Shown here: positions 4,673-62,292 of the stretch, one piece after another
Position numbering within the stretch: position 1 is the stretch's first letter
How the letters are laid out: each line of letters begins with the position of its first letter
From: an uncultured Candidatus Saccharibacteria bacterium
GTDB lineage: Bacteria > Patescibacteriota > Doudnabacteria > UBA920
Direction: 5' to 3'
NCBI GenBank assembly: GCA_964490395.1
Contig: CAZBAS010000006.1
Location: forward strand, 8,081-72,080
DNA: 64,000 nucleotides
Notes under the pieces: generated by a model
Database searches by the model: none
Told to the model about the DNA's origin: nothing
Seen by the model: only the letters and a program-made list of their open reading frames with translations
Position numbers and translations under genes: made by a program

Positions 4673-4722
4673 AGAATCTAGAATTAAGAATTATGAATCA
4701 AGAATATAGTAGTAAGAATATG
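4673..4722. repeat. heptanucleotide tandem repeat (AGAATYA)x7 in a 5' leader
   Basis: agaatct agaattA agaattA tgaatca agaatat agtagta agaatat lies immediately 5' of the start of the oxidoreductase gene. Confidence 0.5.
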
Positions 4723-7454: not shown

Positions 7455-7535
7455 ATATAAAAGCGGAATTTAGAATGGCGAATGTAGAATAAAGAGTGTA
7501 GCAGATTAGAAGAGGGTAGCCCCTTTTGATTATCT

Positions 7536-8399
7536 CTAATGTACCTGCGACGTAGTGATGAGCCGTCTCCAGGGTCCAGTAGGCACTTCTGATTCTTCCA
7601 CGAATTGCCAGCTTACTGTATTTTCGTCGTTATTTAGTCCTTGGAATTTAAGGCAGTCACGTAGTGCAGGAGAGACGTCCATGCCCGCACTGTTTGCTTC
7701 CGTGTTTTTGGGTCGTTCGTCTTTACTCCCAAATACATATTGGGCGTCGCTATATTCATAAGGTCCTGCGTCTTCTATCTGTCCGTAGCAGGCAACGGTG
7801 CCATGAGTAATTTTTACCCATTGGTTTTTCATGAGCGATTCTTCCTTGCTCCAGCTCTTGTCTTTGGCCCATGGTACTACTTGCAGCGCTGTTGGTTTGC
7901 GGTCGCCCTCATCTGTAAAGTCATTATAGGGCAAGTCTAAGTAAAACGGATTTTCTTTGGGTATGCAACCAGCAGGGAAGTAGCCGTTTCGTTTTTCGGG
8001 ATTATCAAAACACCCAAAGTGGTCTTGCCATGCGTCGTCCCATGCGCTTACTGCGTTGTTTTCCGAAGATCCATTTCCCACTGGCTCGCCAATCCAAAAT
8101 ACGGTAGCGGTTATGTTGGTGTGGGCGGGATAGGTGGTAGGTTGCCCGCCCGAGGCGGGTCCGCCTTGGGCGGATAAGTTGTCAGTTGTAAGTTGTTCGG
8201 AAACAGGAGAAGGGGGTGGTACTTTTGATGGGGGAAGGGTAGTGGGGGCAATATCCTGCATGCCTGTACTTACTGCAGAGCTGCTATTTGTGGTCCCTGA
8301 GTTAGTGATAGTATTTACATGCCTCGAGTGTTTCCAAAAAGCAATACCCACAAGTACGGCTAGAAGTATTATGCAAATGAGCATCCATTTATTCCGCAT
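7536..8399 (-). CDS. hypothetical membrane-anchored extracytoplasmic protein
   Basis: Has an N-terminal TM helix, a Pro/Ser/Thr-rich linker and a Trp-rich globular domain. No family recognised. Confidence 0.5.
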   Translation of the reverse strand: MRNKWMLICIILLAVLVGIAFWKHSRHVNTITNSGTTNSSSAVSTGMQDIAPTTLPPSKVPPPSPVSEQLTTDNLSAQGGPASGGQPTTYPAHTNITATVFWIGEPVGNGSSENNAVSAWDDAWQDHFGCFDNPEKRNGYFPAGCIPKENPFYLDLPYNDFTDEGDRKPTALQVVPWAKDKSWSKEESLMKNQWVKITHGTVACYGQIEDAGPYEYSDAQYVFGSKDERPKNTEANSAGMDVSPALRDCLKFQGLNNDENTVSWQFVEESEVPTGPWRRLITTSQVH

Positions 8400-12915: not shown

Positions 12916-13057
12916 GTTAAACAAGTTGGGTGCATTCGAATGATGCCATCCCTGGCGTTAGTCGATTACTCCTGACTTGAACTTAGTAATAGCACATACA
13001 TGATTGGCCTGTTTGCGCAGCCAGTCCTGTCTTTGCGTATGGAAAGGAATTACCAGC

Positions 13058-13618
13058 ATGGTAAAGAAACCAGAACCACAGTCCAAGTTCGAATTGGCTG
13101 CAGTAAAGTTTACTAATTGGGTTGGGTCTACGTCTTCGCTTGTCGTCCATACCTTAGCTTTTATAGCCAGTTTTATATTGGTTATATTTGGCGTGGCGTT
13201 AGATAAAGTACTCCTTGTACTTACGACCGCAGTGTCGCTGGAGGCAATTTATCTTGCTATATTCATTCAAATGACAGTGAACCGCAACACTGCAAGTTTG
13301 GAAGAAGTGGAAGAAGACATAGATGAAATCCAAAAAGACATTGATGAAGTCCAGGAAGACGTGGGCGAAATTGCCGAAGATGTAGGAGAAATTGAAAAAG
13401 ACGTTGATGAAATTCAGGCGGACATTGATGAAGTGCAAAAAGATATAGACGAAGTGCAAAAAGACGTTGACGAAATTCAAGAAGACGTAGAAGACATTAC
13501 AGAAGGCGAAACTGCAGAAGAGCTAGCCGACCGCAAAACTCGCGAGTCCTTAGATAACATAGAAGGCACCCTCGCAAGGCTCATAGAAGAAATAGAAAAA
13601 ATAAAAGCGCAGAAATAA
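13058..13618 (+). CDS. DUF1003 family membrane protein with C-terminal heptad-repeat coiled coil
   Basis: Has two TM helices and the SLEAIYLAIFIQMTVNRN motif characteristic of DUF1003/COG4420. The ATG at 13058 follows AAAGGA. The C-terminus is an acidic 7-residue repeat array. Confidence 0.7.
   Translation: MVKKPEPQSKFELAAVKFTNWVGSTSSLVVHTLAFIASFILVIFGVALDKVLLVLTTAVSLEAIYLAIFIQMTVNRNTASLEEVEEDIDEIQKDIDEVQEDVGEIAEDVGEIEKDVDEIQADIDEVQKDIDEVQKDVDEIQEDVEDITEGETAEELADRKTRESLDNIEGTLARLIEEIEKIKAQK
13301..13512 (+). repeat. about ten imperfect 21 bp tandem repeats inside the DUF1003 gene, encoding the heptads (D/G)E(I/V)(Q/E)(K/E)D(I/V)
   Basis: gatgaa(a/g)t(c/g)ca(a/g)aaagac(a/g)t(t/a) recurs head-to-tail. 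The protein repeat reads DIDEVQK / DVDEIQE. Confidence 0.7.
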
Positions 13619-13648
13619 GTAGTCAGTAGTAAGTTGTCTGTTGTAAGT

Positions 13649-13685
13649 AAAGCACTCTTTGCGTAGGCAAAGAGTGCTTTTATAT
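13649..13685. terminator. bidirectional intrinsic terminator (AAAGCACTCTTTGC-gtag-GCAAAGAGTGCTTT + TAT)
   Basis: Perfect 14 bp stem between convergent genes. Confidence 0.65.
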
Positions 13686-13724
13686 ACTGACTACTGATAA
13701 CTTACTACTGACAGCCTGTTCGGA

Positions 13725-15934: not shown

Positions 15935-16024
15935 ACTAATATACGAATGCCACGCGAATGTCACGAATAATACCGGAAGAATTTACTTAATTCGTAATTC
16001 TTGATTCTTAATTCTATTCTTACA
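15935..16024. repeat. heptanucleotide repeat tract (CGAATG/GAATTAA/GAATCAA units) in a 5' leader
   Basis: acgaatg-cacgcgaatg-tcacgaata ... cttaattcgtaattcttgattcttaattctattcttac. This is the same unit family seen at 4673, 52245, 61143 and inside metG. Confidence 0.45.
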
Positions 16025-16706
16025 ATATATCCGACTTTTGTATATGCACGAACTGGCCCGGAGGAATGTCGGGAAGTTTTAGTTTATTAATGCGAATGCG
16101 TTTCAGGTTTTTCACTTTAAGGCCAACTGCTTCTATCATGCGGCGGACCTGGCGCTTTTTTCCTTCGTGGATGGTTATGAGTATGGTGGTGCCCTTATTT
16201 TTCACTTTAGCCGGGTACGTGGTGCCAGTGGCTATATCTACTCCTTCGCGAAGCAGCTGGAGTTGTTGATCGTTCGGCGCAAGGTTTACGAGGACCTCGT
16301 ACTCTTTTTGGTGCTCGAAACTTGGGTGGGCGAGCTGCTGCGTAAGCTCACCATCATTCGTCAAAATAAGTAATCCTTCGGTGTGGTAGTCGAGCCTACC
16401 CACATTCCAGACTTTGGTCTGCAATTCTTTTGGCAACAGTTTAAATATAGTACGGCGGTGCTGCGGATCGCTTTTGCTGACCACATACTCTTTTGGTTTA
16501 TTTAGCGCAATGTATATCTTCTCTTCTGTAGGGCGAATAACTTTTCCGTATACACTTACTACGTCTTTCTCCGGGTCTACTTTATCTCCCAGCTTTGCTC
16601 GTTTACCATTTATGCTGACCTGACCGCTTTGAATAAACTCCTCAGCTTTGCGCCGGGAAGCTATGCCGTGTTCACTAATGTATTTTTGTACGCGTATGGG
16701 TTCCAT
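16020..16706 (-). CDS. rRNA pseudouridine synthase, RsuA/RluB family (S4 domain plus catalytic domain)
   Basis: Has an S4 RNA-binding N-terminus (YISEHGIASRRKAEEFIQSGQVSINGK) and the catalytic motif GRLDYHTEGLLILTNDG. Start at MEPIRV. Confidence 0.8.
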   Translation of the reverse strand: MEPIRVQKYISEHGIASRRKAEEFIQSGQVSINGKRAKLGDKVDPEKDVVSVYGKVIRPTEEKIYIALNKPKEYVVSKSDPQHRRTIFKLLPKELQTKVWNVGRLDYHTEGLLILTNDGELTQQLAHPSFEHQKEYEVLVNLAPNDQQLQLLREGVDIATGTTYPAKVKNKGTTILITIHEGKKRQVRRMIEAVGLKVKNLKRIRINKLKLPDIPPGQFVHIQKSDIL

Positions 16707-16794
16707 ATGAATGTATTTTACCTTGTTTGGCATTTTATAGCTAGGTTTTGTGTGATAAACTTAAAACAACATAACTGCCAACTAAGACACATAT

Positions 16795-18489
16795 ATGGAC
16801 CAAGAAAACCAAACGCCTCCTTCTGCAGAGCCTGTGCAGGAAATAAAGCCAGTACGCAGCTGGCATGGTGCTGCCCTTTATATACTCATTCCGATAGTGG
16901 TAGTATTGCTCGGCGCTGCTGCATACATGGCCATGCAACTGAAAAATAATTCTACACATGTGCCAAGTGTTGGTACTGTTCAGCCTCCGGCGCCAACCCC
17001 TCCTACCGAAGTGCCGCCTACCCCAGCTCCAGAGCCCGATCACTCTGCTGGTACATGGGTTGGCGTAACGTGGGTTAGCCCATGGAAGCCAGTTGCGAAG
17101 GTGGATTGTGGGCCCGCTGATGCAATTACATGCGAAGCCGAAGCGACAAAACAATATAACGCAGGAACAATTATTGACGGGAAATATAAAGGGCAGACTA
17201 TCTACATACAGGAAGAGAGTATGCTCGGTAGTTCTTACCGATATTTTATAAAGGTGGATAGCAAAAATAAATATTTTGACGAGGCGAATATAAAAATAAC
17301 GGGCATAGACGACCTGCCGGAATATATCCAGCTTCCTGGTAGCGACCAGAAACTAAGACGGTTTACTACCCAGCAGTCGCTCTACAAAGACTTAAAACTG
17401 GCGAAGAAAATATTTACCGACCCGACTGTGGGCGATATCTACTTGTCCGATACTGGGGATTGTTTTATTGCTGCTTTGCCAAATGGTCTGGCAGTGTCGT
17501 ACAGTCTTGTTGTTCCGTTTGTAAACAAAGATACTGGTATCCCTCAAATATCTTTTGACACTGGCAAGGCAAATGCAGATACCTATAATTACATAGTTCC
17601 TTCGTGTGGCTGGCTGTGTGACCGTTTGGCATTGGTAGAAGAAAAAGATCTGAAGCCAGACACAAGGTTGGTTGTGGTGGGGGCAGCAGGCGGCCAAAAG
17701 ATATACGGAATAAAGGACCCGAACGATAAGGTGCTTAAGGATATTTATAACGACAAGAATACGGTGCCGTACTCGAGTAGTACTCAAAATCCTGACGGTA
17801 CCTATCAAAACTCAAAGAGTAAGTATACCTACGAACAATTTATAGCACTGCGCCCGCTTTTGTACTGGCAAGACGCACTTGGTCGCTGGATAGAATTTAG
17901 AAACGCACGCGTGGCAGTTGCCGCGGAAATGTGTAAGCCAGTTATTTATCTATACCCAACCAAAGATACAAACTTAAAAATAGAAGTGGCGCCAAATGGA
18001 GGCCTTACCAAAACTATTCCAGAGTACGGCAATGGCTGGGAAGTAACTGCGCATCCAACTGGTAAAATTACTGACAGAAAAACCGGTGAGGTGTATGACT
18101 ACTTGTTCTGGGAAGGTATAGGCATGCAGTATCCAAGCCCAACAGAAGGTTTTGTTGTGGCAACAAAAGATCTTTCTAAATTCTTTGATACTACATTGCC
18201 AAAGCTTGGTCTGGCAGGCAGAGAAATAACCGACTTTAAAGAATACTGGGTAGCTCGTTTGCAAAATACTGGTAAGGCATATGCGCTCATAAGCTTTATG
18301 AAACCTCTGGACTTTGCAGCGTTAGCGCCTGTTGCCATAACTGGTCAGCAGCCAAATTCAACCATTCGCGTTATGATGACTGCAAAAGCTCTTGATGCAA
18401 AAATTTCTATTCCCGAACAAAAACTTGCTCCAACACCAGTACGTAAAGGGTTTGTGTACGCAGAGTGGGGTGGAGCGCTGCTTCAGTAG
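16795..18489 (+). CDS. hypothetical membrane-anchored extracytoplasmic protein (564 aa)
   Basis: Has an N-terminal TM helix and a Pro/Thr-rich linker (PPAPTPPTEVPPTPAPEP), followed by a large domain with no recognised family. Confidence 0.55.
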   Translation: MDQENQTPPSAEPVQEIKPVRSWHGAALYILIPIVVVLLGAAAYMAMQLKNNSTHVPSVGTVQPPAPTPPTEVPPTPAPEPDHSAGTWVGVTWVSPWKPVAKVDCGPADAITCEAEATKQYNAGTIIDGKYKGQTIYIQEESMLGSSYRYFIKVDSKNKYFDEANIKITGIDDLPEYIQLPGSDQKLRRFTTQQSLYKDLKLAKKIFTDPTVGDIYLSDTGDCFIAALPNGLAVSYSLVVPFVNKDTGIPQISFDTGKANADTYNYIVPSCGWLCDRLALVEEKDLKPDTRLVVVGAAGGQKIYGIKDPNDKVLKDIYNDKNTVPYSSSTQNPDGTYQNSKSKYTYEQFIALRPLLYWQDALGRWIEFRNARVAVAAEMCKPVIYLYPTKDTNLKIEVAPNGGLTKTIPEYGNGWEVTAHPTGKITDRKTGEVYDYLFWEGIGMQYPSPTEGFVVATKDLSKFFDTTLPKLGLAGREITDFKEYWVARLQNTGKAYALISFMKPLDFAALAPVAITGQQPNSTIRVMMTAKALDAKISIPEQKLAPTPVRKGFVYAEWGGALLQ

Positions 18490-18501
18490 AATCATGTAAA
18501 C

Positions 18502-20289
18502 ATGAAAACATTTAAACATATAAACAAAAAATACTTAGTGGTAAGCGCGCTTGTAATTGCAGGCGCGCTTTTGGTGTGGAGTTTTTATTGGGTTGGGGTG
18601 TTTTCCGGTTCCCCTCCTAAGGTAGGAGGGGCTAGGGGTGGTATGAAAGAAAATGCTACCGTAATCCATCCTGCCACGGTCATGCAACCGGATCTGTACC
18701 CAACTTTGAATAAAGTGGATGAGATCCCTGCTGCTACTGAGAAAGTCTACGGCGGTATAGTATCCCACCATTTCTACATGGAAGAGGATATAGGGAAGCT
18801 GTTTTTACAGTTACGCCAGCAGAATCCATCTGTGGTGGTAATAGTGGGTCCGAACCATTTTAATGCAGGCAATGCAGACATACAAACTTCTACTGCTTCG
18901 TATACTACTCCCTTTGGTCAGCTCGATGGCGATCTGCCGCTCGTTAGTCGCTTGGTCGCAGACGGCGCTGCAACTCATGAGGAGCTCGCTTTTGAGCGCG
19001 AACATTCCATAGGGGCACTTGTTGGTTTTACAAAGAAAGTATTTCCAAATGCTAAATTACTTCCCATTATCATGCGTCGCAACGCAAGTCCTGGCCGTAC
19101 GGAACAACTTGCAGCTGAGCTTGAAAAAATACTTCCCCAAGATGCGCTCGTCCTGGCGAGTGTAGATTTTTCGCATCACTTGGATAGGTTTGCAGCTGGC
19201 TTCCACGATAGCCAGTCAGTGGCTGCGTTGCTTTCTGCGGACTTCAACCGCATTCGCAGTCTAGAAGTAGATAGTCCGCAGAGTTTAGAAGTGCTTATGC
19301 GCTACCTGGAGAGCCGGGGAGCACTGCATATGGAATATAAAAATACGAACCAGGCAGTGTATGGCGGTAACTTGATGTCCGATGACGTAACCAGCTATGT
19401 GTTCGCGAAATTTACGTCTTCTTCCAGCCCTCCCCCTCAAGAGGGGTCTCCCTCCTCTTCCTCCCCTAATATAGGGCCCGCTACGCCGGAGCGTAAGCGA
19501 GGCGAGGAGGCTAGGAGGGGTATAATTTCGAACATCGTACCACCCCTAACCCCTCCTATCCTAGGAGGGGGAAAAGACACAGCCACCCTCCTACATCTTG
19601 GGATATTCAATGCAGGCATGCTTGAATCTAACGAAGGCAAGGCCCTCTACGCACTTGGTGGCCCAGAAAATAATTTCCTCCGCGGCGGAGATTTAAAAGT
19701 TATTGGTACGAATAATAAAACAAGTTGTAACTCAGCGCGCATTCCAGCACTTGAGCGCTATAAGATCAATGTATTCAACTCACAGTCATGCGCAAATACC
19801 TTTGTGTTTGGCTCAGAAAATAGAAATTATAATGTAGGTTTTATTTCTATAGCTCAAGGTGAAAACGTAAGCAAAGCAGTAGCTATCCAAAAAAAGAATT
19901 ACGCTTACGTGGCTGTTCAGGTTCCCGCTAGTGCCGAAGCCCAAAGTGCCATCGATTACGGCGCAGATGCAGTCTTTATTCAAGACGGTGCAGCAAAAGT
20001 TGAACTATACAAAAACAAACCCATCATTCATCACCCGGCATCAAATACATCAGGTTTCAGTACTGGCGTAGTATTTAATCCAGCAGGTGCATCAAATATC
20101 GCAGAAGCTTCCTCTGATTCCTCCCCTAAAATAGGGGAGGCTAGGTGGGGTATAAAACTGTACACCTTCCCATACCAACTAAAAAACAATCAACTCACCC
20201 GCCTCGATATTTCTGCAAGACTAAAATCCTGTAAACAAATTTTAACCGGACTAAAAAATGTAGATGGTTGCTCTGCAAGTATCCAGTAA
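18502..20289 (+). CDS. membrane-anchored MEMO1-family (AmmeMemoRadiSam protein B-like) domain fused to a C-terminal domain of uncertain (possibly CapA/metallophosphatase-like) affinity
   Basis: Shows the N-terminal TM helix and the Memo-like motifs VIVGPNHF, TPFG, EHSIGA and SVDFSHH. The C-terminal segment AIDYGADAVFIQDG...LYKNKPIIH is CapA-like. The ORF is interrupted in-frame by three GC-rich palindromic elements. Confidence 0.6.
   Translation: MKTFKHINKKYLVVSALVIAGALLVWSFYWVGVFSGSPPKVGGARGGMKENATVIHPATVMQPDLYPTLNKVDEIPAATEKVYGGIVSHHFYMEEDIGKLFLQLRQQNPSVVVIVGPNHFNAGNADIQTSTASYTTPFGQLDGDLPLVSRLVADGAATHEELAFEREHSIGALVGFTKKVFPNAKLLPIIMRRNASPGRTEQLAAELEKILPQDALVLASVDFSHHLDRFAAGFHDSQSVAALLSADFNRIRSLEVDSPQSLEVLMRYLESRGALHMEYKNTNQAVYGGNLMSDDVTSYVFAKFTSSSSPPPQEGSPSSSSPNIGPATPERKRGEEARRGIISNIVPPLTPPILGGGKDTATLLHLGIFNAGMLESNEGKALYALGGPENNFLRGGDLKVIGTNNKTSCNSARIPALERYKINVFNSQSCANTFVFGSENRNYNVGFISIAQGENVSKAVAIQKKNYAYVAVQVPASAEAQSAIDYGADAVFIQDGAAKVELYKNKPIIHHPASNTSGFSTGVVFNPAGASNIAEASSDSSPKIGEARWGIKLYTFPYQLKNNQLTRLDISARLKSCKQILTGLKNVDGCSASIQ
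18607..18645. repeat. GC-rich palindromic element, short version, in-frame in CDS (encodes SGSPPKVGGARGGM)
   Basis: ggttCCCCTCCtaaggtaGGAGGGGctaggggtggtatg. Confidence 0.7.
19425..19572. repeat. composite GC-rich palindromic element cluster in-frame in CDS (CCCCCTCAAGAGGGG hairpin, then the long-version element, then a CCCCTCCTA-tcc-TAGGAGGGG hairpin)
   Basis: ccctccccctcaagaggggtctccc ... cctcccctaatatagggcccgctacgccggagcgtaagcgaggcgaggaggctaggaggggtat ... cccctcctatcctaggagggg. It encodes SSSPPPQEGSPSSSSPNIGPATPERKRGEEARRGI...PPILGGG. Confidence 0.7.
20119..20155. repeat. GC-rich palindromic element, short version, in-frame in CDS (encodes SDSSPKIGEARWGI)
   Basis: tCCTCCCCTAaaaTAGGGGAGGctaggtggggtataaa. 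Confidence 0.7.
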
Positions 20290-23294: not shown

Positions 23295-23415
23295 AGTACA
23301 ATTTTCAATTTTTAATTTTACAATTTTTAATGAATTAGCAAATATCTAAACATTGAAGTTTTAAAATGGTAAATTGGAGATTTTAAATTGATTGAAAATT
23401 GTAAAATTGAAAATT

Positions 23416-25035
23416 ATGGCTTCATCTAAACGCGTAATTATCATCGGTTCTGGTATTGGTGGGCTCGGGTCAGCGAACTTGCTGGCTAAGCTTGGCTATG
23501 AAGTAACGGTGCTGGAGAAAAATGACTATCTGGGTGGCCGCGCCGGCCTTATAGAGGAAGCAGGGTACAGGTTTGATAAGGGTCCTTCTTGGTACTTAAT
23601 GCCGGACGTGTGGGAACATTATTTTGGACTGCTTGGGAAAAAGGTAGAAGATTATCTTACTCTCAAGCAACTCAGTCCAAGCTATAGAATATTTTTTGAA
23701 AGCGATCGTCATTCCCGATCCAGTCGGGAATCCAGTGTCGCCATGTCAGCGACACAGCTTAACGGCCCCGATGTGAAATCGGGGCTGGATCCCCGCGGGC
23801 GCGAGGATGACAATGCTCACTTTGTAGACATGTATGCAGATGTAGAAAAGACTGCTGCGTATTTTGAAAGTCTAGAAGCAGGCGCAGGGGAAAAGTTTAA
23901 GGCGTACTTGAAAATGACAGCGCATGCCTATGAAACCGCAAAAGAGCTGTTCATGTACAAGAACTATGACTCCGTGTTTGACCTCTATGACAAGCGGGCA
24001 TCCAAAGCAAAGCTATCACCGCACCTTCTCGGTTCCATGCATCGCTACGTGAGCAAGGAATTTAAAAACGAACGCATACAAAAAATACTCCAGTACCAAC
24101 TAGTATTTCTTGGCGGCTCGCCCTATAACACTCCTGCGCTCTATTCCATTATGAACCACATAGACTTTAACATGGGCGTGTTTTATCCTATGGGTGGCAT
24201 TTATGAAATTATTAACGCCCTAGTCAACATTGGTCGTGAGTTTGGAGTTACGTACAAAACGAATGCAGCAGTTAAACGGATTGTGGTAACGGGAGGAAAA
24301 GCGAGTGGAGTAGAGCTTGAAGATGGGACCGTTATTGAATCCGACTTGGTTGTATCAAATGCAGACATCTACCACACAGAAACAGCGTTGCTTGCACCGG
24401 AGTATCGAGAACACACAGAAAAATACTGGCAGAAGCGCACGCTTGCTCCTTCGGCGTTCATTATGTACTTAGGCATTAAAGATAGGGTGCCTGAACTTAC
24501 GCACCACAATTTATTATTTGCCAAAGACTGGGCGCAAAATTTTGCAGATATATTTGACCATCCTAAATTTCCCGAAAAGCCTTCAGTATATGTGTGCGCG
24601 CCAAGCGTAACCGATGACACTGTAGCACCGGCAGGAAAAGAAAACCTCTTCGTGCTCGCGCCCATTGCCCCGGGCCTCGAATATACTTCTGAGTTTTTAG
24701 AGCAGTATGGAAATAATCTCCTTGACTGGCTTGGCCGCGAAATGGGCGTGGAAAATCTGCGAAGCCGAGTTGAGTATAGAAAAGAATATTGTGTAAAAGA
24801 TTTTGCTGCAGACTACAACAGTTTTAAAGGTACAGCCTTGGGTCTGGCTCATACGTTACGTCAGAGTGTATTTCTTCGGCCAAATAATATAAGCAAAAAG
24901 GTACAAGGGTTGTACTACGTTGGTGCTGGCACTAACCCTGGCATTGGTATGCCCATATGTTTAATTTCTGCGGAGTTGCTTGTTAAGCGACTCCTTGGTA
25001 ATGCAACTGCGGAGCCGCTCTTAAAACTTGAATAG
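23416..25035 (+). CDS. crtI: phytoene desaturase (CrtI-family FAD-dependent oxidoreductase)
   Basis: Has the N-terminal VIIIGSGIGGLGSANLLAKLGYEVTVLEKNDYLGGRAG dinucleotide-binding motif. The CrtI-family C-terminus is present (GLYYVGAGTNPGIGMP). The ATG at 23416 was chosen. It contains an in-frame GC-hairpin cluster. Confidence 0.85.
   Translation: MASSKRVIIIGSGIGGLGSANLLAKLGYEVTVLEKNDYLGGRAGLIEEAGYRFDKGPSWYLMPDVWEHYFGLLGKKVEDYLTLKQLSPSYRIFFESDRHSRSSRESSVAMSATQLNGPDVKSGLDPRGREDDNAHFVDMYADVEKTAAYFESLEAGAGEKFKAYLKMTAHAYETAKELFMYKNYDSVFDLYDKRASKAKLSPHLLGSMHRYVSKEFKNERIQKILQYQLVFLGGSPYNTPALYSIMNHIDFNMGVFYPMGGIYEIINALVNIGREFGVTYKTNAAVKRIVVTGGKASGVELEDGTVIESDLVVSNADIYHTETALLAPEYREHTEKYWQKRTLAPSAFIMYLGIKDRVPELTHHNLLFAKDWAQNFADIFDHPKFPEKPSVYVCAPSVTDDTVAPAGKENLFVLAPIAPGLEYTSEFLEQYGNNLLDWLGREMGVENLRSRVEYRKEYCVKDFAADYNSFKGTALGLAHTLRQSVFLRPNNISKKVQGLYYVGAGTNPGIGMPICLISAELLVKRLLGNATAEPLLKLE
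23706..23825. repeat. cluster of three to four GC-rich perfect hairpins inserted in-frame in crtI (a sequence family distinct from the CCCCTCC elements)
   Basis: ATTCCCGA-tccag-TCGGGAAT; GTGTCGC-catgtca-GCGACAC; GCCCCGAT-gtgaa-ATCGGGGC; CCGCGGGCGCG. Together they encode about 40 extra residues (SDRHSRSSRESSVAMSATQLNGPDVKSGLDPRGRED). Confidence 0.5.
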
Positions 25036-42674: not shown

Positions 42675-42914
42675 ATGAACGAACAGGAACTACAGAGCGT
42701 GATAGATCTTATTTTGGCTTCCGCATTAGACCAAACCATAAAAGATATATTGATACGCGATCTAAAAACAGAAGGACTTACGGATTTTCTCCGTGAGCAG
42801 ATTATTGCTTATTGCGATGATGCATTACAAAAATTGGATGCTAAAGCAGAGGCAGCTAAAAAAGTGCTTGAAGAGCGGGGTGTTGATTATAATTCAGCGA
42901 CTACTGCTGCTTAG
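42675..42914 (+). CDS. small hypothetical protein (79 aa, helical)
   Basis: The ORF is followed immediately by a perfect intrinsic terminator. No family recognised. Confidence 0.4.
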   Translation: MNEQELQSVIDLILASALDQTIKDILIRDLKTEGLTDFLREQIIAYCDDALQKLDAKAEAAKKVLEERGVDYNSATTAA

Positions 42915-42945
42915 AAAACCGGCTTAGTAGCCGGTTTTTTCTTTT
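42915..42945 (+). terminator. intrinsic terminator AAAACCGGCT-tagt-AGCCGGTTTTTT
   Basis: Perfect GC-rich stem with a T6 tail. Confidence 0.75.
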
Positions 42946-42962
42946 GAGCGTATACTACAACT

Positions 42963-43988
42963 ATGAAATTTTCTGAACTCGAATACTCTACAAAAGTCAT
43001 ATTAAAGGTTGTGTTTGTTGTTTTGGCCTTGGCATTTATATGGGCTATCCGCGAAGTTATAGCCGTTTTTTTGCTAGCGGTTGTTTTGGCCTCCGCTTTG
43101 GACCCTTTGGCAGACTATCTAAGCAAACGAAAAATTCCTCGCGCTGTGAGTGTACTTGCGGTGTACGTGATTGTTTTTGGTATTGTGGGTCTGGTGCTGG
43201 CGACCATTGCCCCGTCGCTTGCTACTCAGTTCCATTTACTTAGCAGTAATTTTCCGGAGTATCTCAGCGAACTCCATGCGCGCTATCCAAGCTTCGCAAG
43301 CATTCTACCTGGGTCCAGCCTTGGTGAAATAGTAAGCGGTGTGCTTACGGGTAATGGCGGCGGTTCTGTGTTTACCCGCACGTTGGGCGTATTTAATGGG
43401 CTCCTAGGTTTTGTTACTGTGCTCGTTGTTTCTTTTTACTTAGTTGCTTCTCAGCAAAAGGGTATGAAAGAGCTTATTCGTTCCGTAGTCCCTGCTGGCC
43501 AACGAGAAATGACTATGGGCTTGGTGGAGAAAATCCAACGCAAAATGGGTTTGTGGGTGCTTGGACAAATTATTTTAAGCATTGCTATTTTCATACTTAC
43601 CTTTGTGGGGCTAACCGTGCTGAATGTTAAATATGCGTTGGTGCTCGCGCTCATGGCTGGCCTCTTAGAAGTGGTGCCGTATATTGGTCCCATTGTTTCA
43701 GCAGTTCCTGCACTGTTTTTTGCGCTCATACAAAGTCCTGCGCTTGGTGTGGGGGTGATAGTGTTGTATATAATTATTCAAAAAACCGAAGGCTATGTAC
43801 TTGTCCCGAAGATAATGCACAAGACTGTAGGCGTTTCGCCTTTGGTTGTTATACTCGCCCTCCTTACCGGGTTTAAACTCGCAGGCATAGTGGGTTTACT
43901 CCTTGCAGTGCCTATTGCCGCTGCCGCTACAGTGCTTATAGACGAGTTTTCTGGCGGGCCTTCCGAGCCGAAGTCCGCTCCGTTGTAG
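42963..43988 (+). CDS. AI-2E family transporter (PerM/UPF0118)
   Basis: Has an 8-TM profile and conserved segments typical of AI-2E/UPF0118 permeases. Confidence 0.75.
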   Translation: MKFSELEYSTKVILKVVFVVLALAFIWAIREVIAVFLLAVVLASALDPLADYLSKRKIPRAVSVLAVYVIVFGIVGLVLATIAPSLATQFHLLSSNFPEYLSELHARYPSFASILPGSSLGEIVSGVLTGNGGGSVFTRTLGVFNGLLGFVTVLVVSFYLVASQQKGMKELIRSVVPAGQREMTMGLVEKIQRKMGLWVLGQIILSIAIFILTFVGLTVLNVKYALVLALMAGLLEVVPYIGPIVSAVPALFFALIQSPALGVGVIVLYIIIQKTEGYVLVPKIMHKTVGVSPLVVILALLTGFKLAGIVGLLLAVPIAAAATVLIDEFSGGPSEPKSAPL

Positions 43989-44045
43989 TAAAAATTCAAA
44001 AAAGCTATACTAAAAGGGCTCAAACGAGCTCTTTTTCTTACATCT

Positions 44046-45524
44046 ATGTCTAAACCATTTTACATTACGACTACACTTCCATATGTAAACGCGAAACCCC
44101 ACATGGGTCACGCGCTGGAGTTTGTGTATGCCGATATTTTAGCTCGGTATCATAAGCTGTTGGGCGATGAAATATACTTCAACACTGGTACTGACGAACA
44201 TGGTTTGAAGATATATCAGAAGGCTATTGAAGAAGGTAAGGGGCCCCAAGCTTACGTAGATGAGTACGCAGCAAAGTTTAAGTCTCTACTGCCTCGTTTG
44301 GGAGTATCCGACGATATACATTTTATACGAACAACAGATGCCAATCATAAATCTGCTGCGCAAGAGTTTTGGAAGCGGTGCTTGGCGAATGATGATATAT
44401 ATAAAAAGATATATAAAGTTAAATACTGCGTTGGGTGTGAGCTAGAAAAAACAGATTCAGACCTTGTTGATGGATTCTGCCCATTGCACCCCGGAAAAGA
44501 GTTAGAGCTCATAGAAGAAGAAAACTATTTCTTTAAATTTTCGAAGTATCAGCAACCCTTGCTCGATTTGTACGATACAGCGAACCATGACTTTGTGGTG
44601 CCAAAAACACGTCTGCATGAGATACGCGAATTCGTATCAGCAGGTCTTAAAGACTTTAGCATATCGAGGCTCGCAACTAAGATGCCTTGGGGAATACCGG
44701 TGCCTGGCGACGAATCACAAGTCATGTATGTGTGGTTTGATGCACTCATTAATTACATTTCTACATTGGGCTGGCCAAGTACTTCCGAGCAGTTTGAAAA
44801 ATTTTGGGGAACAATTGATGCGCCAAACGGAATACAAATTGCAGGTAAAGACAACCTCCGCCAGCAGTCCGCAATGTGGCAGGCAATGCTTATGAGCGCG
44901 GGTCTTCCAAACTCTAAACAAATCTTAATCCACGGGTTCATCACGAGCGGCGGCCAGAAGATGTCTAAGAGTATTGGAAACGTCGTAGATCCATTTGATG
45001 TAATAGATAAGTTAATAGAAAAAGGTGTGGCAGAAGCTCAGGCAATTGACGCGCTTAGGTATTGGTTTGCGCGTGAGATGCCGACCTTTGAAGACGGTGA
45101 TTTTACTTGGGAACGTTTCGTAGAAAACTATACTGCTAATCTTGCAAATGGTTTGGGGAATTTGACGAGCCGTATTTTAAAAATGGCGGTGAATGCAGGA
45201 ATTACGAATTACGAATTACGAATTACGAATTTCAATTCTGAGTATGGAACCTGTCTAAACCAGTATGAAATACAGAAAGTAACAGACTGGGTGTGGGAAA
45301 AAATTAAAGCCGCAGATGAGTTCATAGCTAAAGAAGAACCATTCAAGAAAGTTAAAGTTGACCTTGAGGCAGGCAAGAAAGATATACAGTATTTACTTGG
45401 CCAGCTGGAGCTTGTTGCATATCACACGCAGCCATTGTTACCAGACTCATCACAAAAAATATTGGCAGCGTTACAAAACATAACTCTTGAAACTATTCCA
45501 CGGCTGTTTCCAAGGATTGCATAA
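44046..45524 (+). CDS. metG: methionine--tRNA ligase (short form)
   Basis: Has the HIGH-type motif PHMGHAL, the KMSKS motif, and a Cys knuckle CVGCELEKTDSDLVDGFCPLH. An in-frame heptamer-repeat insertion lies in the anticodon-binding region. Confidence 0.8.
   Translation: MSKPFYITTTLPYVNAKPHMGHALEFVYADILARYHKLLGDEIYFNTGTDEHGLKIYQKAIEEGKGPQAYVDEYAAKFKSLLPRLGVSDDIHFIRTTDANHKSAAQEFWKRCLANDDIYKKIYKVKYCVGCELEKTDSDLVDGFCPLHPGKELELIEEENYFFKFSKYQQPLLDLYDTANHDFVVPKTRLHEIREFVSAGLKDFSISRLATKMPWGIPVPGDESQVMYVWFDALINYISTLGWPSTSEQFEKFWGTIDAPNGIQIAGKDNLRQQSAMWQAMLMSAGLPNSKQILIHGFITSGGQKMSKSIGNVVDPFDVIDKLIEKGVAEAQAIDALRYWFAREMPTFEDGDFTWERFVENYTANLANGLGNLTSRILKMAVNAGITNYELRITNFNSEYGTCLNQYEIQKVTDWVWEKIKAADEFIAKEEPFKKVKVDLEAGKKDIQYLLGQLELVAYHTQPLLPDSSQKILAALQNITLETIPRLFPRIA
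45198..45239 (+). repeat. six tandem heptanucleotide units (CGAATTA)x6 = 42 nt, in-frame inside metG
   Basis: ggaatta cgaatta cgaatta cgaatta cgaattt caattct. It encodes GITNYELRITNFNS. This is the same unit family as the intergenic tracts. Confidence 0.7.
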
Positions 45525-45571
45525 TGGCCATATCTATACAAAGGTTTAAGTATTAATTATACGATTTTAAA

Positions 45572-46267
45572 ATGTTAGGCGAGCGTGGTGCGCATGAAAA
45601 TTTGAACTCGACCATCACTGGCGAGGGTACCGACCATAAGCGCGCTATGGCCTATACGAATGCGTTCAAAACTTTCGTACATGAACATCCGCATGTTTTA
45701 CGGCAAGTTGAAACGCAGATAGATGAGTTATATGCTCAAAACCCAAAACCTGGGGATGAATTATCAACTCCTGAATGCAAGGTTGTATTTTTAGATAGAG
45801 AACCTTTGCATGATTCCGATTATTTCTCGGTTCACGTGGCAGGTAGGGATTTCTTTGTGAAAGCTCCTGGGGTAAATGAAGATACTACGCCTGCGTATGC
45901 TGAGGTGGTCGCTGGTCATGCTCTACAGAAGAAGCTGGAAGGCCTGCATATTCCAAAACTGAAGGTTGTGAAATACCACTTTGGCTACACAGATTCAAAA
46001 GGCAGAAATATATTAGTAGCAGATTTAGCAGCAAAGCATTGGAGAATAGCGCAGGAGTACATGAACGAAATATCGAAAACAGATCTAGCTAAAGCCGACA
46101 GCCTCCAGCGTCGCACCGATTACGTAATGCAGGTGTTGGACCTTACGGAAGGAGAGGGGGAATTTCTAGATATCCAGCCGTATAATATGTTCTACGATCC
46201 AGATACAGACGAATTAATTCTATTTGATATAAGCTATCCAGATTCACTAGGCGATTATGCTCATTGA
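45572..46267 (+). CDS. hypothetical protein
   Basis: 231 aa ORF. No family recognised. Confidence 0.45.
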   Translation: MLGERGAHENLNSTITGEGTDHKRAMAYTNAFKTFVHEHPHVLRQVETQIDELYAQNPKPGDELSTPECKVVFLDREPLHDSDYFSVHVAGRDFFVKAPGVNEDTTPAYAEVVAGHALQKKLEGLHIPKLKVVKYHFGYTDSKGRNILVADLAAKHWRIAQEYMNEISKTDLAKADSLQRRTDYVMQVLDLTEGEGEFLDIQPYNMFYDPDTDELILFDISYPDSLGDYAH

Positions 46268-47282
46268 TACTCACGCACATATAAACTTACACGCATTTAA
46301 AGATGATGCAGATGAAGTGTTGCAGCGGTGTTTTGCCGCGGGTGTGACTGTTATAAATGTGGGCACAGAATACAATACGAGCAAACAGGCGGTGGATATG
46401 CTCAAGGAATATCCGCTGCGTGTATATGCAGCCATAGGTCTCCACCCTAGTCATACGTACGATAATCCGTATTTAGATGAGAATGAAAGCGCGTCGCGAA
46501 GTGGGCAGGAACAGTTCAATTACGACGCTTATAAAAAACTGGGAGCGCATGAAAAGGTTATTGGAATAGGTGAGTGTGGGTTGGATTATTATAGATTGCC
46601 AGATGATGCGTCTACTCATGAATCTATTAAGGCGTTGCAAAAAGAAGCTTTTCTGAAGCAGATTAAGCTAGCGCTGGAACTAGACAAGACTCTTATTATC
46701 CATTGTCGCCCAAGCAAAGGTACCAACGACGCTTATGAGGATGTCCTTGCTATAATTTCCAATTTCCCCGTTCGGCAGGCTCAGGGCCCTGAACTTCTTG
46801 AAGGGCAATTTCCAGTTTCCAATGAAGGAAGTTTTCTTTCCGGCACCCCTCCTCTGGAGGAGGGGCAGGGGGAGGTCATAGTGAAGAATGACGATGCATC
46901 AAAAGTTTCTATGACCCCCACTAACTCCCCCTCAAGAGGGGGAGGACAAGAACTTCGTTTCGAAGTTCATTCGTTTACGGGACCACTCGAAATAGCACAG
47001 AAGTTTCTTGCTCTCGGCGCTTACATTGGTTTAAACGGGATAATCACTTTCGATAAAACCGGGAACATGGAGCAAGTAGTAAAAGGTGTGCCGCTGGAAC
47101 GAATAGTGCTTGAGACAGATTCGCCGTACCTAGCGCCTATCCCATATCGTGGTAAGCGCAACGAGCCTGCATATATAGAGCAAGTGGCAAAGAAAATTGC
47201 TGAGTGGAAAAGCGTGGCTTGTGAAGACGTGGCCGCTACTACAACAGAAAACGCAAAACAATTATTTAAACTACCTTTATGA
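46257..47282 (+). CDS. tatD: TatD-family metal-dependent deoxyribonuclease/hydrolase with an in-frame insertion of about 45 aa
   Basis: Has LIDTHAHI, GECGLDY and the HCR motif of the TatD family. It is 341 aa against about 255 aa typical. The excess corresponds to a GC-rich palindromic element cluster. Confidence 0.85.
   Translation: MLIDTHAHINLHAFKDDADEVLQRCFAAGVTVINVGTEYNTSKQAVDMLKEYPLRVYAAIGLHPSHTYDNPYLDENESASRSGQEQFNYDAYKKLGAHEKVIGIGECGLDYYRLPDDASTHESIKALQKEAFLKQIKLALELDKTLIIHCRPSKGTNDAYEDVLAIISNFPVRQAQGPELLEGQFPVSNEGSFLSGTPPLEEGQGEVIVKNDDASKVSMTPTNSPSRGGGQELRFEVHSFTGPLEIAQKFLALGAYIGLNGIITFDKTGNMEQVVKGVPLERIVLETDSPYLAPIPYRGKRNEPAYIEQVAKKIAEWKSVACEDVAATTTENAKQLFKLPL
46840..46950. repeat. 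composite GC-rich palindromic insertion in tatD (CCCCTCCTC-tg-GAGGAGGGG; GGTCATAG...CTATGACC; CTCCCCCTC-aa-GAGGGGGAG)
   Basis: Three perfect hairpins lie within 110 nt. They encode GTPPLEEGQGEVIVKNDDASKVSMTPTNSPSRGGGQE. Confidence 0.7.
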
Positions 47283-52244: not shown

Positions 52245-52275
52245 TGATTCGTAATTCTTCATTCTTGATTCTGTC
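52245..52275. repeat. heptanucleotide repeat tract (TGATTCG TAATTCT TCATTCT TGATTCT) in a 5' leader
   Basis: Lies immediately upstream of the ATG at 52281. Unit family GAATYAM (shown here as its reverse complement). Confidence 0.45.
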
Positions 52276-52280
52276 TTTTC

Positions 52281-53429
52281 ATGACTTTAAAACTCCGACT
52301 CCCACACTATTTTCTGTTTCACCTCAATGCTGAGGTAAAAGAACTCTATGTCGCTGCTGGTATTGCCGATGTTGCTTTGTCGGCGATGCTCGTGTTCGAA
52401 CCTATATATTTGTATCAGGCTATTGGGCTGACAGTGCCGATGGTGCTCATTTTTTTTGCTGCTGTGTATGCGTGGTATGCACTGCTTATTCCTTTTGGTG
52501 GAAAATTTACCGCTGCATTTGGCTATAAACGGGCCATGGCACTGAGCATATTTTTTCAGCTTGGGTATTGGGCGTGTTTGTTTTTTGCGGCAGGACACCC
52601 TGCGCTCTTGTGGCTTGCCCCGCTACTCTATGCCATAGAAAAATCTTTATATTGGCCCGCATTTCATGGTATAGTGGCACGGTTTGCAAATCAGGGGCAG
52701 GTAGGGAGAGAGTTCAGTATGCTTACCGCCATTATTCAAGCCGCGCAAATAATTGGCCCACTTCTCGGTGGCATCTTGGCACAGGTGAGCGGTAGTCAGA
52801 ATTTACTTGTGGCAGCGGGGGCAATATATGTAGTGGCTCTTATTCCTTTGCTTATTCATAAAGAGCGTTATCAAGAGAAACCATATTCATTCCGGGACAC
52901 CTGGAATTTGTATGGCACACAAATGAAAAAAAGCATTGGGTATTGGGGATTTGGCGAAGAACTGTTGGCGCTCACTGTTTGGCCTATTTTCATTTTCATT
53001 GTTCTTACTGGCTACCAGGAAGCGGGTATAGTTATAACCATTGCCTCCGCACTTTCCGCCGGTATTTCGTTGTACCTTGGAAAGCTTACCGATGGAGCAG
53101 CTAAAATGCCCATGCTTAAGCTTGGAGCGGTAGCAACTGCTCTTGGCTGGTTTGTGCGTCCACTGTTGCCAGGCGCCGGCGGAAGCCTCGCCGCAGATAC
53201 CACTGCCAGGGTAGGGAAAAATGTCTATTTTATTCCGCTTTCTACCGTAACGTATGAACGGGCAGAAGCAACGGATATAATTCCTTACATAGTATTTTTT
53301 GAGCAAAGCTTGGCCTTTGGCAAGCTCCTCACGGCTCTTGCGGCCGCGCTCTTATTTGCCGTAACAGGCAGTTTTCCGCTATTGTTTGTATTAGCAGGGC
53401 TCATGAGCCTTTTATACATTCTTCTATAA
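52281..53429 (+). CDS. MFS-type transporter (putative)
   Basis: Has about 10-12 TM helices, and GxLaD-like and MFS-like loops. The N-terminal boundary is uncertain. Confidence 0.5.
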   Translation: MTLKLRLPHYFLFHLNAEVKELYVAAGIADVALSAMLVFEPIYLYQAIGLTVPMVLIFFAAVYAWYALLIPFGGKFTAAFGYKRAMALSIFFQLGYWACLFFAAGHPALLWLAPLLYAIEKSLYWPAFHGIVARFANQGQVGREFSMLTAIIQAAQIIGPLLGGILAQVSGSQNLLVAAGAIYVVALIPLLIHKERYQEKPYSFRDTWNLYGTQMKKSIGYWGFGEELLALTVWPIFIFIVLTGYQEAGIVITIASALSAGISLYLGKLTDGAAKMPMLKLGAVATALGWFVRPLLPGAGGSLAADTTARVGKNVYFIPLSTVTYERAEATDIIPYIVFFEQSLAFGKLLTALAAALLFAVTGSFPLLFVLAGLMSLLYILL

Positions 53430-61147: not shown

Positions 61148-61178
61148 GATCAAGAATTAAGAATCACGAATTGGGTAC
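61143..61178. repeat. heptanucleotide repeat tract (GGATCAA GAATTAA GAATCAC GAATTGG) followed by a degenerate GC-rich palindrome
   Basis: Lies directly after the queA stop. It is followed by gggtacccccgggttCCCCTCCCCaggcGGGGGGAGagg (61178..61225). Confidence 0.45.
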
Positions 61179-61230
61179 CCCCGGGTTCCCCTCCCCAGGC
61201 GGGGGGAGAGGCCAGGAGAGAGGTTGAATC

Positions 61231-62292
61231 ATGCTTACACAATCCAAAGTTACAACTTTAACCAAAACTTTTTGGATATCTGGAACAGTAATTATTTTAA
61301 TTGCTATTGGGTTGGTAGCATGGCGTGTGTGGCCTACGAAAAAATCTGATTTTGCTAATGGCGCACAGGTTGCTGAACAAACAAAGCCAAAACTTGAGGC
61401 GACTATTAGCGGGCAGTTAGTAGCGCCGGAAATAGCTGCGCGAAGACCCATGGCAGTTATGGTAGAAAACCACCCGGATGCCAGGCCACAAAGCGGCCTT
61501 TCGCAAGCAGAGGTAGTGTATGAAATGATGGCTGAGGGTGGTATAACCCGGTATGTTGCAGTCTTCCAGAAAGATACAGGCGCCATAGGTCCGGTTCGTT
61601 CTGCGCGTGACTATTTTGCGGAACTTGCAGATTCATGGGGTGCGATATATGCCCATGTAGGCGGAAGCCCAGAAGCATTGGAACAAATAAAGAATGGCGT
61701 GTATAAAAACCTTACCGACATAAACGAATTTTACCAAGGTAACTATTTTACGCGCATCAAAACAAGAGTCGCCCCGCACAATACCTATATCTCCACAAAC
61801 AAACTACTCGAATACGAAGCAGTAATAGATAAGGCTCCAACAACTCCACCGCAGCCGTTCACTTTTGCAGACACGCCAGGAGTAGCACCTGAAGTCGCAC
61901 GTAGTATAGCCATAGATTTTTCCTTGCCTAGCTACAAAGTCCTATTTACCTACGACCCCGCAACGCAAAAGTATTTACGCTCTGTTGCCGGCAAAGCCGA
62001 CACCGATGCAGTAACCAAAACCCAACTTTCTCCAAAAACTGTAATAGTACAGGAAACAGATATAAATCCTATACCAGGCGATGATAAATTCCGCGTAAAC
62101 CTCCGCACCACTGGTACCGGCAAGGCCTACGTCTTCCAAAATGGCTACGTTGCCACTGCCACCTGGAAACGCGAACCCGGCAAACCAATCCAATACCTCG
62201 ACGCCCAAAATAACCCCATCTCATTCACCCCCGGTCAATTCTGGATCGCACTTGTTTCTAAAAATAATCCCTCAGCCGTAACTTGGCACTAA
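61231..62292 (+). CDS. DUF3048-like secreted protein (YerB-like)
   Basis: Has an N-terminal TM/signal and the segment MAVMVENHPDARPQSGLSQAEVVYEMMAEGGITRYVAVF, which resembles DUF3048. Confidence 0.5.
   Translation: MLTQSKVTTLTKTFWISGTVIILIAIGLVAWRVWPTKKSDFANGAQVAEQTKPKLEATISGQLVAPEIAARRPMAVMVENHPDARPQSGLSQAEVVYEMMAEGGITRYVAVFQKDTGAIGPVRSARDYFAELADSWGAIYAHVGGSPEALEQIKNGVYKNLTDINEFYQGNYFTRIKTRVAPHNTYISTNKLLEYEAVIDKAPTTPPQPFTFADTPGVAPEVARSIAIDFSLPSYKVLFTYDPATQKYLRSVAGKADTDAVTKTQLSPKTVIVQETDINPIPGDDKFRVNLRTTGTGKAYVFQNGYVATATWKREPGKPIQYLDAQNNPISFTPGQFWIALVSKNNPSAVTWH

Follow-up and report, generated by a model that had tools for sequence, protein, structure and literature searches.

How does a tandem repeat with a unit of seven nucleotides persist in the coding sequence of an essential gene? 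Selection should remove repeats from such genes if the unit length is not divisible by three, since each slip is a frameshift. We address this question for metG, the methionyl-tRNA synthetase (MetRS) gene in a 64,000-nucleotide stretch of contig CAZBAS010000006.1 (positions 8,081 to 72,080, hereafter the window) from an uncultured Doudnabacteria-like member of the Patescibacteria, which contains a perfect array of the heptamer GAATTAC. Four-unit heptamer arrays are numerous in this lineage, in genes and near gene starts, and the metG array is one of them. We favour, with a probability of roughly 0.6, the reading that it is a heptanucleotide microsatellite which is translated as a tolerant loop between two MetRS helices and evolves in concert, within limits set by reading frame and loop length. 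No function of its own has been demonstrated for the array. The features of the locus are as follows:

44046–45524, plus strand: metG, class I methionyl-tRNA synthetase, short form, 492 aa (open reading frame (ORF), homologues, Protein Data Bank (PDB) structures)
45195–45236, plus strand: codons of MetRS residues 384–397 (AGITNYELRITNFN), an inter-helix coil (AlphaFold2 model, PDB alignments)
45198–45239, plus strand: 42-nt span of the perfect array, a one-mismatch unit GAATTTC and a decayed remnant AATTCT (direct reading)
45199–45231, plus strand: perfect heptanucleotide array, (GAATTAC) × 4.7 (Tandem Repeats Finder (TRF), direct reading, shuffles)

TRF describes 45199–45231 as a period-7 repeat with 4.7 copies of GAATTAC, 100% matches and a score of 66, and the letters read directly are GG AATTACG AATTACG AATTACG AATTACG AATTTCAATTCT. 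The full sequence of 45198–45239 in the window is GGAATTACGAATTACGAATTACGAATTACGAATTTCAATTCT, of which the last nine bases are the one-mismatch unit plus the decayed remnant. Its positions 45220–45233 fit the 14-mer GAATTACGAATTAC with one mismatch. An earlier note on this DNA had described six near-perfect units over 42 nt. The tract does exist, but its extent was overstated: read in the register CGAATTA, three units are perfect, two have one mismatch and the sixth (CAATTCT) is essentially no unit, and the perfect part spans 33 nt rather than 42 nt. It is the only perfect tandem with at least three copies at periods 4–12 in the 64 kb window. Across 20 shuffles of the window no perfect tandem with at least three copies was found at periods 6–12, and perfect period-7 runs in shuffled sequence did not exceed 17 nt. 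Such a tract is far outside what chance would give and, with at least three head-to-tail 7-nt copies, is a heptanucleotide simple sequence repeat (SSR).

The tract lies in frame within metG, as the earlier note had stated, in a continuous ORF. It encodes the peptide GITNYELRITNFNS (residues 385–398), correctly placed by that note in the C-terminal anticodon-binding part of the 492-aa enzyme, and it follows from arithmetic that a one-unit change would frameshift the gene. Homologues of metG carry the PF09334 and PF19303 domains and are named methionine--tRNA ligase of Candidatus Doudnabacteria or Patescibacteria group, and solved MetRS structures match the product with E-values as low as 3e-95 (PDB 4dlp). 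The host gene thus encodes a MetRS with a class I catalytic core and a helical anticodon-binding domain. In an AlphaFold2 model (alignment A1; mean pLDDT 85, pTM 0.86), residues 384–397 form a coil in the anticodon-binding domain between helix 355–383, on which the conserved GNLxSR motif sits, and helix 398–405. Confidence in the alignments to the solved MetRS 4dlp and 2csx drops exactly at the tract-encoded segment. The coil in the model and the unreliable PDB alignment at this position therefore indicate that the tract encodes a variable connecting loop. No RNA structure (RNA fold z = -0.64) and no Rfam family was found at the tract. GAATTAC also does not fit the X XXY YYZ pattern of a programmed frameshift site; no downstream structure was found there, and the ORF is continuous in frame 0.

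According to the earlier note, MetRS homologues have no such segment, and the tract looked like an in-frame capture of a dispersed repeat. MetRS scans of genome and metagenome contigs gave, among the matches listed, mostly distant Patescibacteria and few close loci, and the DNA of close relatives was obtained individually by exact protein look-up. An alignment of 30 MetRS proteins has no gap at the tract. In ~60 other Patescibacteria loci among the matches listed, the same inter-motif segment is of similar or greater length and its DNA is non-repetitive. The best period-7 score is 7–12 of 21 in all of these other Patescibacteria loci but L073 (16 of 21), and 17–21 of 21 in the Doudnabacteria-like clade, except for L001 (14 of 21). 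The claim about homologues is therefore false, and capture is contradicted by the very observation that the earlier note had named as speaking against it, an orthologous loop with non-repetitive DNA. The metG tract is the coding sequence of a surface loop and not an insertion. MetRS relatives at ~60% identity still carry GAATTAN-type arrays at the exact tract site. Among the loop peptides of 120 homologues, the GAATTAN-type translation I-x-N-Y/E-E-L-R/G-I-x-N can be found in many proteins that are 60–68% identical to that of the window. As same-site GAATTAN arrays persist down to ~60% identity, the array is old and not a recent capture. The window thus retains the widespread unit family at the metG site.

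The DNA of the site was extracted from the fetched relatives of the window's Doudnabacteria-like clade. In every close orthologue examined from this clade but one, about four heptamers occupy the same boundaries, starting directly after AATGCNGG (Asn-Ala-Gly/Glu) and ending at a conserved Phe codon. At the individual loci the site contains:

Window: GAATTAC × 4
L008 and L085: GAATTAT, GAATTAT, GAATTAG, GAATTAT
L086: GAATTAG, GAATGAG, GAATTAG, GAATTAG
L169: decayed GAATNAN
L081: AATTTCT/AATTACC
L166–168: GTTACAA/GTGACAA
L084: CTTACAG × 4
L170: ATTGCAA × 4
L082 and L171: ATTGCAG
L083 and L001: GTGGACA, with one or two extra codons
L175: AAGATAC × 4
L165: array replaced by a GC-rich palindrome, +7 codons

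All variant segments at the site are multiples of 3 nt within intact ORFs. The frame is not kept by six units of seven nucleotides adding up to 42 nt, as had been proposed; the arrays have ~4 to 4.7 units, with partial units at fixed boundaries. The copy-number polymorphism expected of a slippage-driven SSR was not seen among the orthologous metG arrays, which have ~4 units and vary in sequence at constant length. Exact-sequence look-ups cannot reveal length variants, and the identical arrays across samples (L166–168, L171/172) are therefore not evidence of stability. A longer loop in P0103 was considered as a three-unit expansion and rejected, as its DNA again contains exactly four units (AAGATAC) and the extra length lies downstream. 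The metG arrays are orthologous across the Doudnabacteria-like clade, and their loop length is similar to that of array-less relatives.

The units of the metG arrays evolve in concert, and where they are not homogeneous a stop codon is avoided. On average, units of one array have an identity of 0.86, and units at the same position in orthologous arrays one of 0.57. Read in one register, units change stepwise by one to three substitutions. Different units are borne by MetRS proteins that are 94–96% identical outside the variable sites. In strains L171, L173 and L084 the flanking DNA is 92–100% identical, yet all four metG units differ (ATTGCAG, GYGACAA and CTTACAG, respectively), and ~27 nt downstream of the array are also hypervariable among the three. 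The tatD array in the same strains comprises four AAACAAG units in L171 and L173 vs. four AAATCCG-like units in L084. A uniform GAATTAT array would place an in-frame TGA in its third unit, which is where L008 and L085 carry GAATTAG, their only deviant unit. Likewise, a uniform GAATTAG array would have an in-frame TAG in the second unit, where L086 has GAATGAG, again its only deviant unit. GAATTAC, which is stop-free in every phase, forms the perfect array. As the deviations fall where a stop would arise, the homogenising force acts on the DNA and is halted by selection only where it would be lethal. Recombination between diverged alleles also contributes to the variation of the metG array. The metG–tatD region of L171, L173 and L084 is a mosaic, in which blocks where L173 matches L084 and not L171 alternate with blocks where L173 matches L171 and not L084; this mosaic identity indicates frequent homologous recombination in these populations.

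Heptamer arrays are not confined to metG. The window has five period-7 tracts vs. 0–2 for the other periods in the range 4–12. The density of period-7 tracts is 16.1 per 100 kb in clade loci vs. 3.6 per 100 kb in other Patescibacteria loci, and no other period exceeds 1.3 tracts per 100 kb; the clade density is somewhat inflated because the loci were chosen through metG. The over-representation of period 7 that characterizes prokaryotic heptanucleotide SSRs is thus present both in the window and in the clade loci. Most heptamer arrays in the sampled clade loci fall inside long ORFs, at sites that include metG after the LGWP motif, tatD, leuS, an aminoacyl-tRNA synthetase gene of the tRNA-synt_2b family and a Sua5-family gene. 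Of 30 arrays counted in long clade ORFs, exactly four in-phase units are present in 23; another six reach a score of five through a partial unit added to four, a single array has three, and arrays of six or more units are absent. Between genes, the range is three to eight units. The earlier note suggested that copy number might be limited to multiples of three. Coding copy number does look constrained, with four units in 23 of the 30 arrays, but at most in the form "1 + 3". Four is one plus three, the first frame-preserving expansion of a single unit. The same units recur at different sites: AATTTCC is common to tatD and leuS, GTGGACA is found at two metG sites, and the GAATYAN family recurs at several loci in several genomes, including leuS and the Sua5-family gene of L169. 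Conversely, the single genome of L083 contains TCTCTAT, GCATTCA, GTGGACA and AATTTCC arrays.

Relatives also vary at a second hypervariable site in metG (residues 241–249, LGWPSTSEQ, window ~44766–44790), where the window has no insert and relatives have in-frame inserts of 10–40 aa. The inserts of L083 (10770–10860) and L084 (10740–10820) each comprise two inverted heptamer arrays separated by a short spacer, such as (AATGCAN)n ... (GCATTCA)n and (CAGGGNA)n ... (ACACCCT)4. The leuS genes of L169 (13541–16432) and L170 (5364–8279) encode proteins that are ~140 aa longer, with a NUDIX domain (PF00293) between the editing and catalytic parts, and L081 has a separate NUDIX gene directly upstream of a leuS of normal length (15995–18908). 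The (AATTTCC)x4 array of these leuS genes encodes KFPISNFQFPI ahead of the TTRPDT motif.

That the GAATYAM unit family occurs elsewhere in the window, next to gene starts, was borne out by a search with the 14-mer GAATTACGAATTAC, which gave 11 window matches with at most two mismatches vs. 0.44 expected. Seven matches lie outside metG (4681, 5636, 15987/15994, 52244/52251, 61154). The arrays of this family are in both orientations, and some contain GAATTAA variants, which are not translatable. They comprise:

4673–4709: degenerate array AGAATCT AGAATTA AGAATTA TGAATCA AGAATAT, immediately ahead of the minus-strand oxidoreductase-like gene 3432–4666, which starts at 4666
15986–16016, minus strand: array AGAATTA AGAATCA AGAATTA CGAATTA, between two minus-strand genes
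52245–52272: array ATTCGTA ATTCTTC ATTCTTG ATTCTGT (plus strand), ending 9 nt before the ATG of gene 52281–53429
61152–61172, plus strand: units AAGAATT AAGAATC ACGAATT, abutting the GC-rich palindromic element 61173–61222 upstream of gene 61231–62292

The arrays at 4673–4709 (minus strand) and 52245–52272 stop 6–9 nt ahead of start codons. Heptamer arrays with other units can also be found in the window:

7466–7501: degenerate (GAATGTA) × 5, 12 nt upstream of the start (7454) of the minus-strand gene 5679–7454
8175–8196: array TAAGTTG TCAGTTG TAAGTTG
13616–13712: inverted arrays TAAGTAG TCAGTAG TAAGTTG ... TACTGAC TACTGAT AACTTAC TACTGAC, flanking a terminator-like hairpin between convergent genes
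23299–23331: (CAATTTT) × 4.6, intergenic
23391–23415: (ATTGAAA) × 3.4, reverse complement of the CAATTTT array, running into the start of gene 23416–25035
46754–46820, plus strand: second in-frame array (AATTTCC), in the TatD-family gene 46257–47282, split 2 + 2

The maintenance of the metG array could be explained by a repeat-homogenising DNA process that would keep re-making a uniform array in the loop-coding DNA. Replication slippage, out-of-register repair within the array and recombinational import of alleles are candidate homogenisers. Purifying selection on MetRS would admit only variants that keep the frame and are stop-free in all three phases, and would also hold the length of the loop and its anchors (N-A-G before, Phe after). 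The homogenising process is probably slippage or conversion, and the array itself is presumably selectively neutral or slightly costly. This account agrees with the published picture of heptanucleotide repeats in prokaryotes: according to two later papers (PMC4679880; PMC4692102) that summarize Mrazek et al. (2007), no long SSRs are more over-represented in many prokaryotes than heptanucleotides, an excess for which polymerase slippage has been put forward.

Several observations weigh against this explanation. Simple slippage is not a viable homogenising route, as a one-unit change frameshifts the essential metG, and a route from four units to one and back to four predicts alleles that are 7 aa shorter, none of which was found among the 120 homologues. 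Copy numbers of ~4–5 also occur in several intergenic arrays, where frame is irrelevant, and the lengths of perfect runs are bimodal, with a mode at 27–33 nt and none longer, instead of geometric. The sharing of units between unrelated genes, and of the GAATYAN family between loci and genomes, hints at something more specific than random slippage. As the ~27 nt downstream of the array are hypervariable too, recombination of old alleles may contribute as much as turnover in situ. The explanation also leaves the recurrence of units and the association with GC-rich palindromes unaccounted for. It is conceivable, if doubtful, that a period-specific but sequence-non-specific DNA process of this lineage of the candidate phyla radiation (CPR) writes or rewrites arrays of ~28–33 nt at fixed sites. 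Such a process could possibly take the form of a repeat-generating or repeat-resetting repair or retro-element activity, or of a partnership with the GC-rich palindromes. It would explain why copy number hardly departs from four, why near-identical strains have swapped units wholesale, why unrelated genes have units in common, and why hairpins are flanked by pairs of inverted arrays.

Other explanations assign the array an origin or a role of its own. The arrays could be functional cis-elements, such as tandem sites bound by a single-strand nucleic-acid-binding or DNA-binding protein, or translation modulators, with the metG copy modulating expression or elongation. The window arrays at 4673, 7466, 23391 and 52245 end 6–12 nt ahead of start codons, the arrays are uniform in size (~4–5 units), and a regulatory role in translation or transcription has been suggested for comparable heptamer arrays near starts in Beggiatoaceae and Nostoc (PMC4679880; bioRxiv 10.1101/2022.06.06.494920). 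These published roles are themselves speculative, though, and units differ wholly between orthologous arrays and within the one genome of L083; differences this complete are hard to reconcile with one sequence-specific partner. Given also the arrays in both orientations relative to genes, and the lack of structure or Rfam family at the tract noted above, we regard a cis-acting role as improbable. A recent in-frame capture of a dispersed mobile repeat, comparable to the GC-rich palindromes of the genome, is slightly less probable still. It would be in keeping with the GAATYAM-family units at five other window loci, the identical units shared by unrelated genes and genomes, the true in-frame insertions nearby (e.g., the 39-nt palindrome in tatD) and the inserts of 10–23 aa at the second metG site of relatives. 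Against it, array-less homologues show no net insertion by comparison, the arrays lie at an identical position in orthologues down to ~60% identity, many of them with the GAATTAN unit, and the copies share only the heptamer unit and no flanking sequence. Judged as a mobile palindrome resembling Rickettsia palindromic elements (RPE), small dispersed repeats (SDR) or miniature inverted-repeat transposable elements (MITE), the metG tract has no net insertion and no shared ends, and its RNA fold gives no hairpin potential.

Adaptive hypervariability, in which arrays rapidly diversify protein surface loops in a cassette-like manner under diversifying selection, seems very improbable. Variation at both metG sites and at two tatD sites is indeed sharp and cassette-like in strains that are otherwise 92–100% identical, and unit types are not distributed as the protein tree would predict. 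Its targets, however, are cytosolic housekeeping enzymes with no evident antagonist (MetRS, LeuRS, a tRNA-synt_2b-family synthetase, TatD and Sua5), and the encoded peptides (ITNYELR, IADCRLQ, SGQWTVD, KQETRNK) have no common property. Compared with a diversity-generating retroelement, allele differences at the site are not restricted to adenines, and no further copy of the tract region, as would be needed for a template repeat, was found in the 64 kb window, although no search for reverse-transcriptase genes was made. The coding heptanucleotide tract also recalls the architecture of neuO, in which the full-length protein is made only at repeat numbers divisible by three (PMC13001214). A phase-variable contingency locus of this type, in which slippage would switch metG on and off, is most unlikely, as metG encodes an essential aminoacyl-tRNA synthetase, the tract lies at codon 385 of 492, far from the 5′-end, and all orthologues looked at are in frame with ~4 units. 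Lastly, the chance of an assembly or sequencing artefact is close to negligible, even though short tandem repeats are prone to mis-assembly in metagenome bins. The 33-nt tract is shorter than a read, and assemblies of many other samples have arrays of the same size at this site. A contig from a different assembly collection (Logan, SRR24788853), perhaps assembled from the same reads, is 100% identical to window positions 42765–45561 (2797 bp), tract included. This identity makes an assembler artefact unlikely.

A concertedly evolving coding microsatellite, the reading that we prefer, has precedents in part. The over-represented heptanucleotide SSRs of prokaryotes (Mrazek et al., 2007) include the cyanobacterial STRR repeats, the GGGAATC-type repeats of Xanthomonas and Nostoc (PMC4692102) and the TAACTGA repeats of Beggiatoaceae and cyanobacteria (PMC4679880). 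The arrays described here have in common with them the head-to-tail 7-nt units, the few copies per array and many arrays per genome, the predominance of period 7 over all others, the location of several arrays just upstream of start codons, and the extensive variation in sequence at the same locus between related genomes. The known families are described as mainly intergenic, usually with one favoured unit per genome. Here, in contrast, most sampled arrays are in ORFs, some of them of essential genes, many different units occur side by side, copy number within ORFs is nearly fixed at four, and the arrays are positionally orthologous across a wide clade. The variable-number tandem repeat in neuO of the E. 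coli K1 phage CUS-3 has 3–53 repeats and is out of frame in 66% of genomes (PMC13001214). It shares with metG a coding 7-nt unit that is translated in all three phases, with a frame that depends on copy number modulo three. It differs in being a 5′-end tract in an accessory gene that is often out of frame, whereas metG is essential and its array of ~4 to 4.7 units at codon 385 is always in frame.

The higher similarity within arrays and the replacement of units across a whole array are also features of concerted tandem arrays such as minisatellites, rDNA and repeat proteins. Unlike these, the metG array has only four 7-nt units in an essential ORF, and the usual route of unequal exchange is largely closed to it because single-unit steps are lethal. 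Rickettsia palindromic elements are small palindromic sequences inserted in frame into protein genes. Small dispersed repeats of Nostoc reportedly also occur as in-frame palindromic insertions in protein genes. Such insertions resemble the metG tract in that repeat DNA is tolerated and translated in the loops of housekeeping proteins. The tract differs from them in that it is not palindromic, involves no net insertion and has no element-specific ends.

Our literature search found no work on heptanucleotide repeats in Patescibacteria. What is new here is not the kind of SSR, which is known, but its occurrence in essential CPR genes, fixed at four units, positionally conserved and evolving in concert. 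In this lineage, uniform four-unit arrays have been kept in housekeeping genes, those for aminoacyl-tRNA synthetases among them. Their sites have stayed the same across deep divergence, while the turnover of unit sequence outpaces that of the surrounding gene. These arrays provide a compact natural system for asking how arrays homogenise when single-unit steps are lethal, and they bear on the cause of the prokaryotic preference for repeat units of seven nucleotides, which was noted in 2007 and is still without a mechanism. Heptamer-encoded loops are hypervariable strain markers, and repeat-encoded peptides in CPR proteins should not be taken as functional motifs or insertions.

The GC-rich palindromes of the window genome insert in frame, in three cases into or beside heptamer arrays. 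Associations between the two were observed in tatD (46768–46806), at 8136–8196 and at 61152–61222 in the window, as well as in L165 and P0120. The window tatD array is split by the 39-nt GC-rich palindromic insert 46768–46806, while the four-unit array is uninterrupted in the orthologues of L083 and L001. A footprint model, with arrays arising from rounds of insertion and excision of an element that duplicates 7 bp at its target site, is not supported, as the window has 2 + 2 units vs. four in L001 and L083, with no extra unit. Further GC-rich palindromes can be found in the window tatD at ~46843–46877 and ~46915–46950; tatD of L083 has the intact array and none of the palindromes, and that of L001 has the array and the first downstream palindrome. 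The segment 46843–46877 gave a sub-threshold Rfam match to whalefall-1 (25.7 bits vs. a gathering score of 37). At syntenic positions immediately downstream of tatD, L083 (13226–13870), L165 (4595–5245) and L169 (13091–13504) have genes resembling Y1 transposases (PF01797, IS200/RAYT-type), which are possible mobilisers of the palindromes. As a mobiliser encoded in the window, a RAYT-like Y1 transposase was rejected, since tblastn gave no homologue there.

At 8136–8196 the GC-rich palindrome GCCCGCCCGAGGCGGGTCCGCCTTGGGCGG is directly followed by the heptamer array, inside a minus-strand ORF (7536–8399) for a putative membrane protein. The hairpin at 13616–13712 is perfect, AAGCACTCTTTGC-GTAG-GCAAAGAGTGCTT, with its palindrome extended by the repeat arms, and its unit resembles the reverse complement of the Beggiatoaceae TAACTGA repeat with one mismatch. 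The arrays at 23299–23331 and 23391–23415 are ~60 nt apart. An 11-nt direct repeat (CGAATGCCACG CGAATGTCACG) at 15944–15965 adjoins the array at 15986–16016, upstream of the start of a minus-strand gene. At 13314–13498, within the ORF 13004–13618, a 21-nt unit repeated 8.8 times encodes the acidic heptads EDIDEIQ KDIDEVQ, which is a protein heptad repeat and not a heptanucleotide array.

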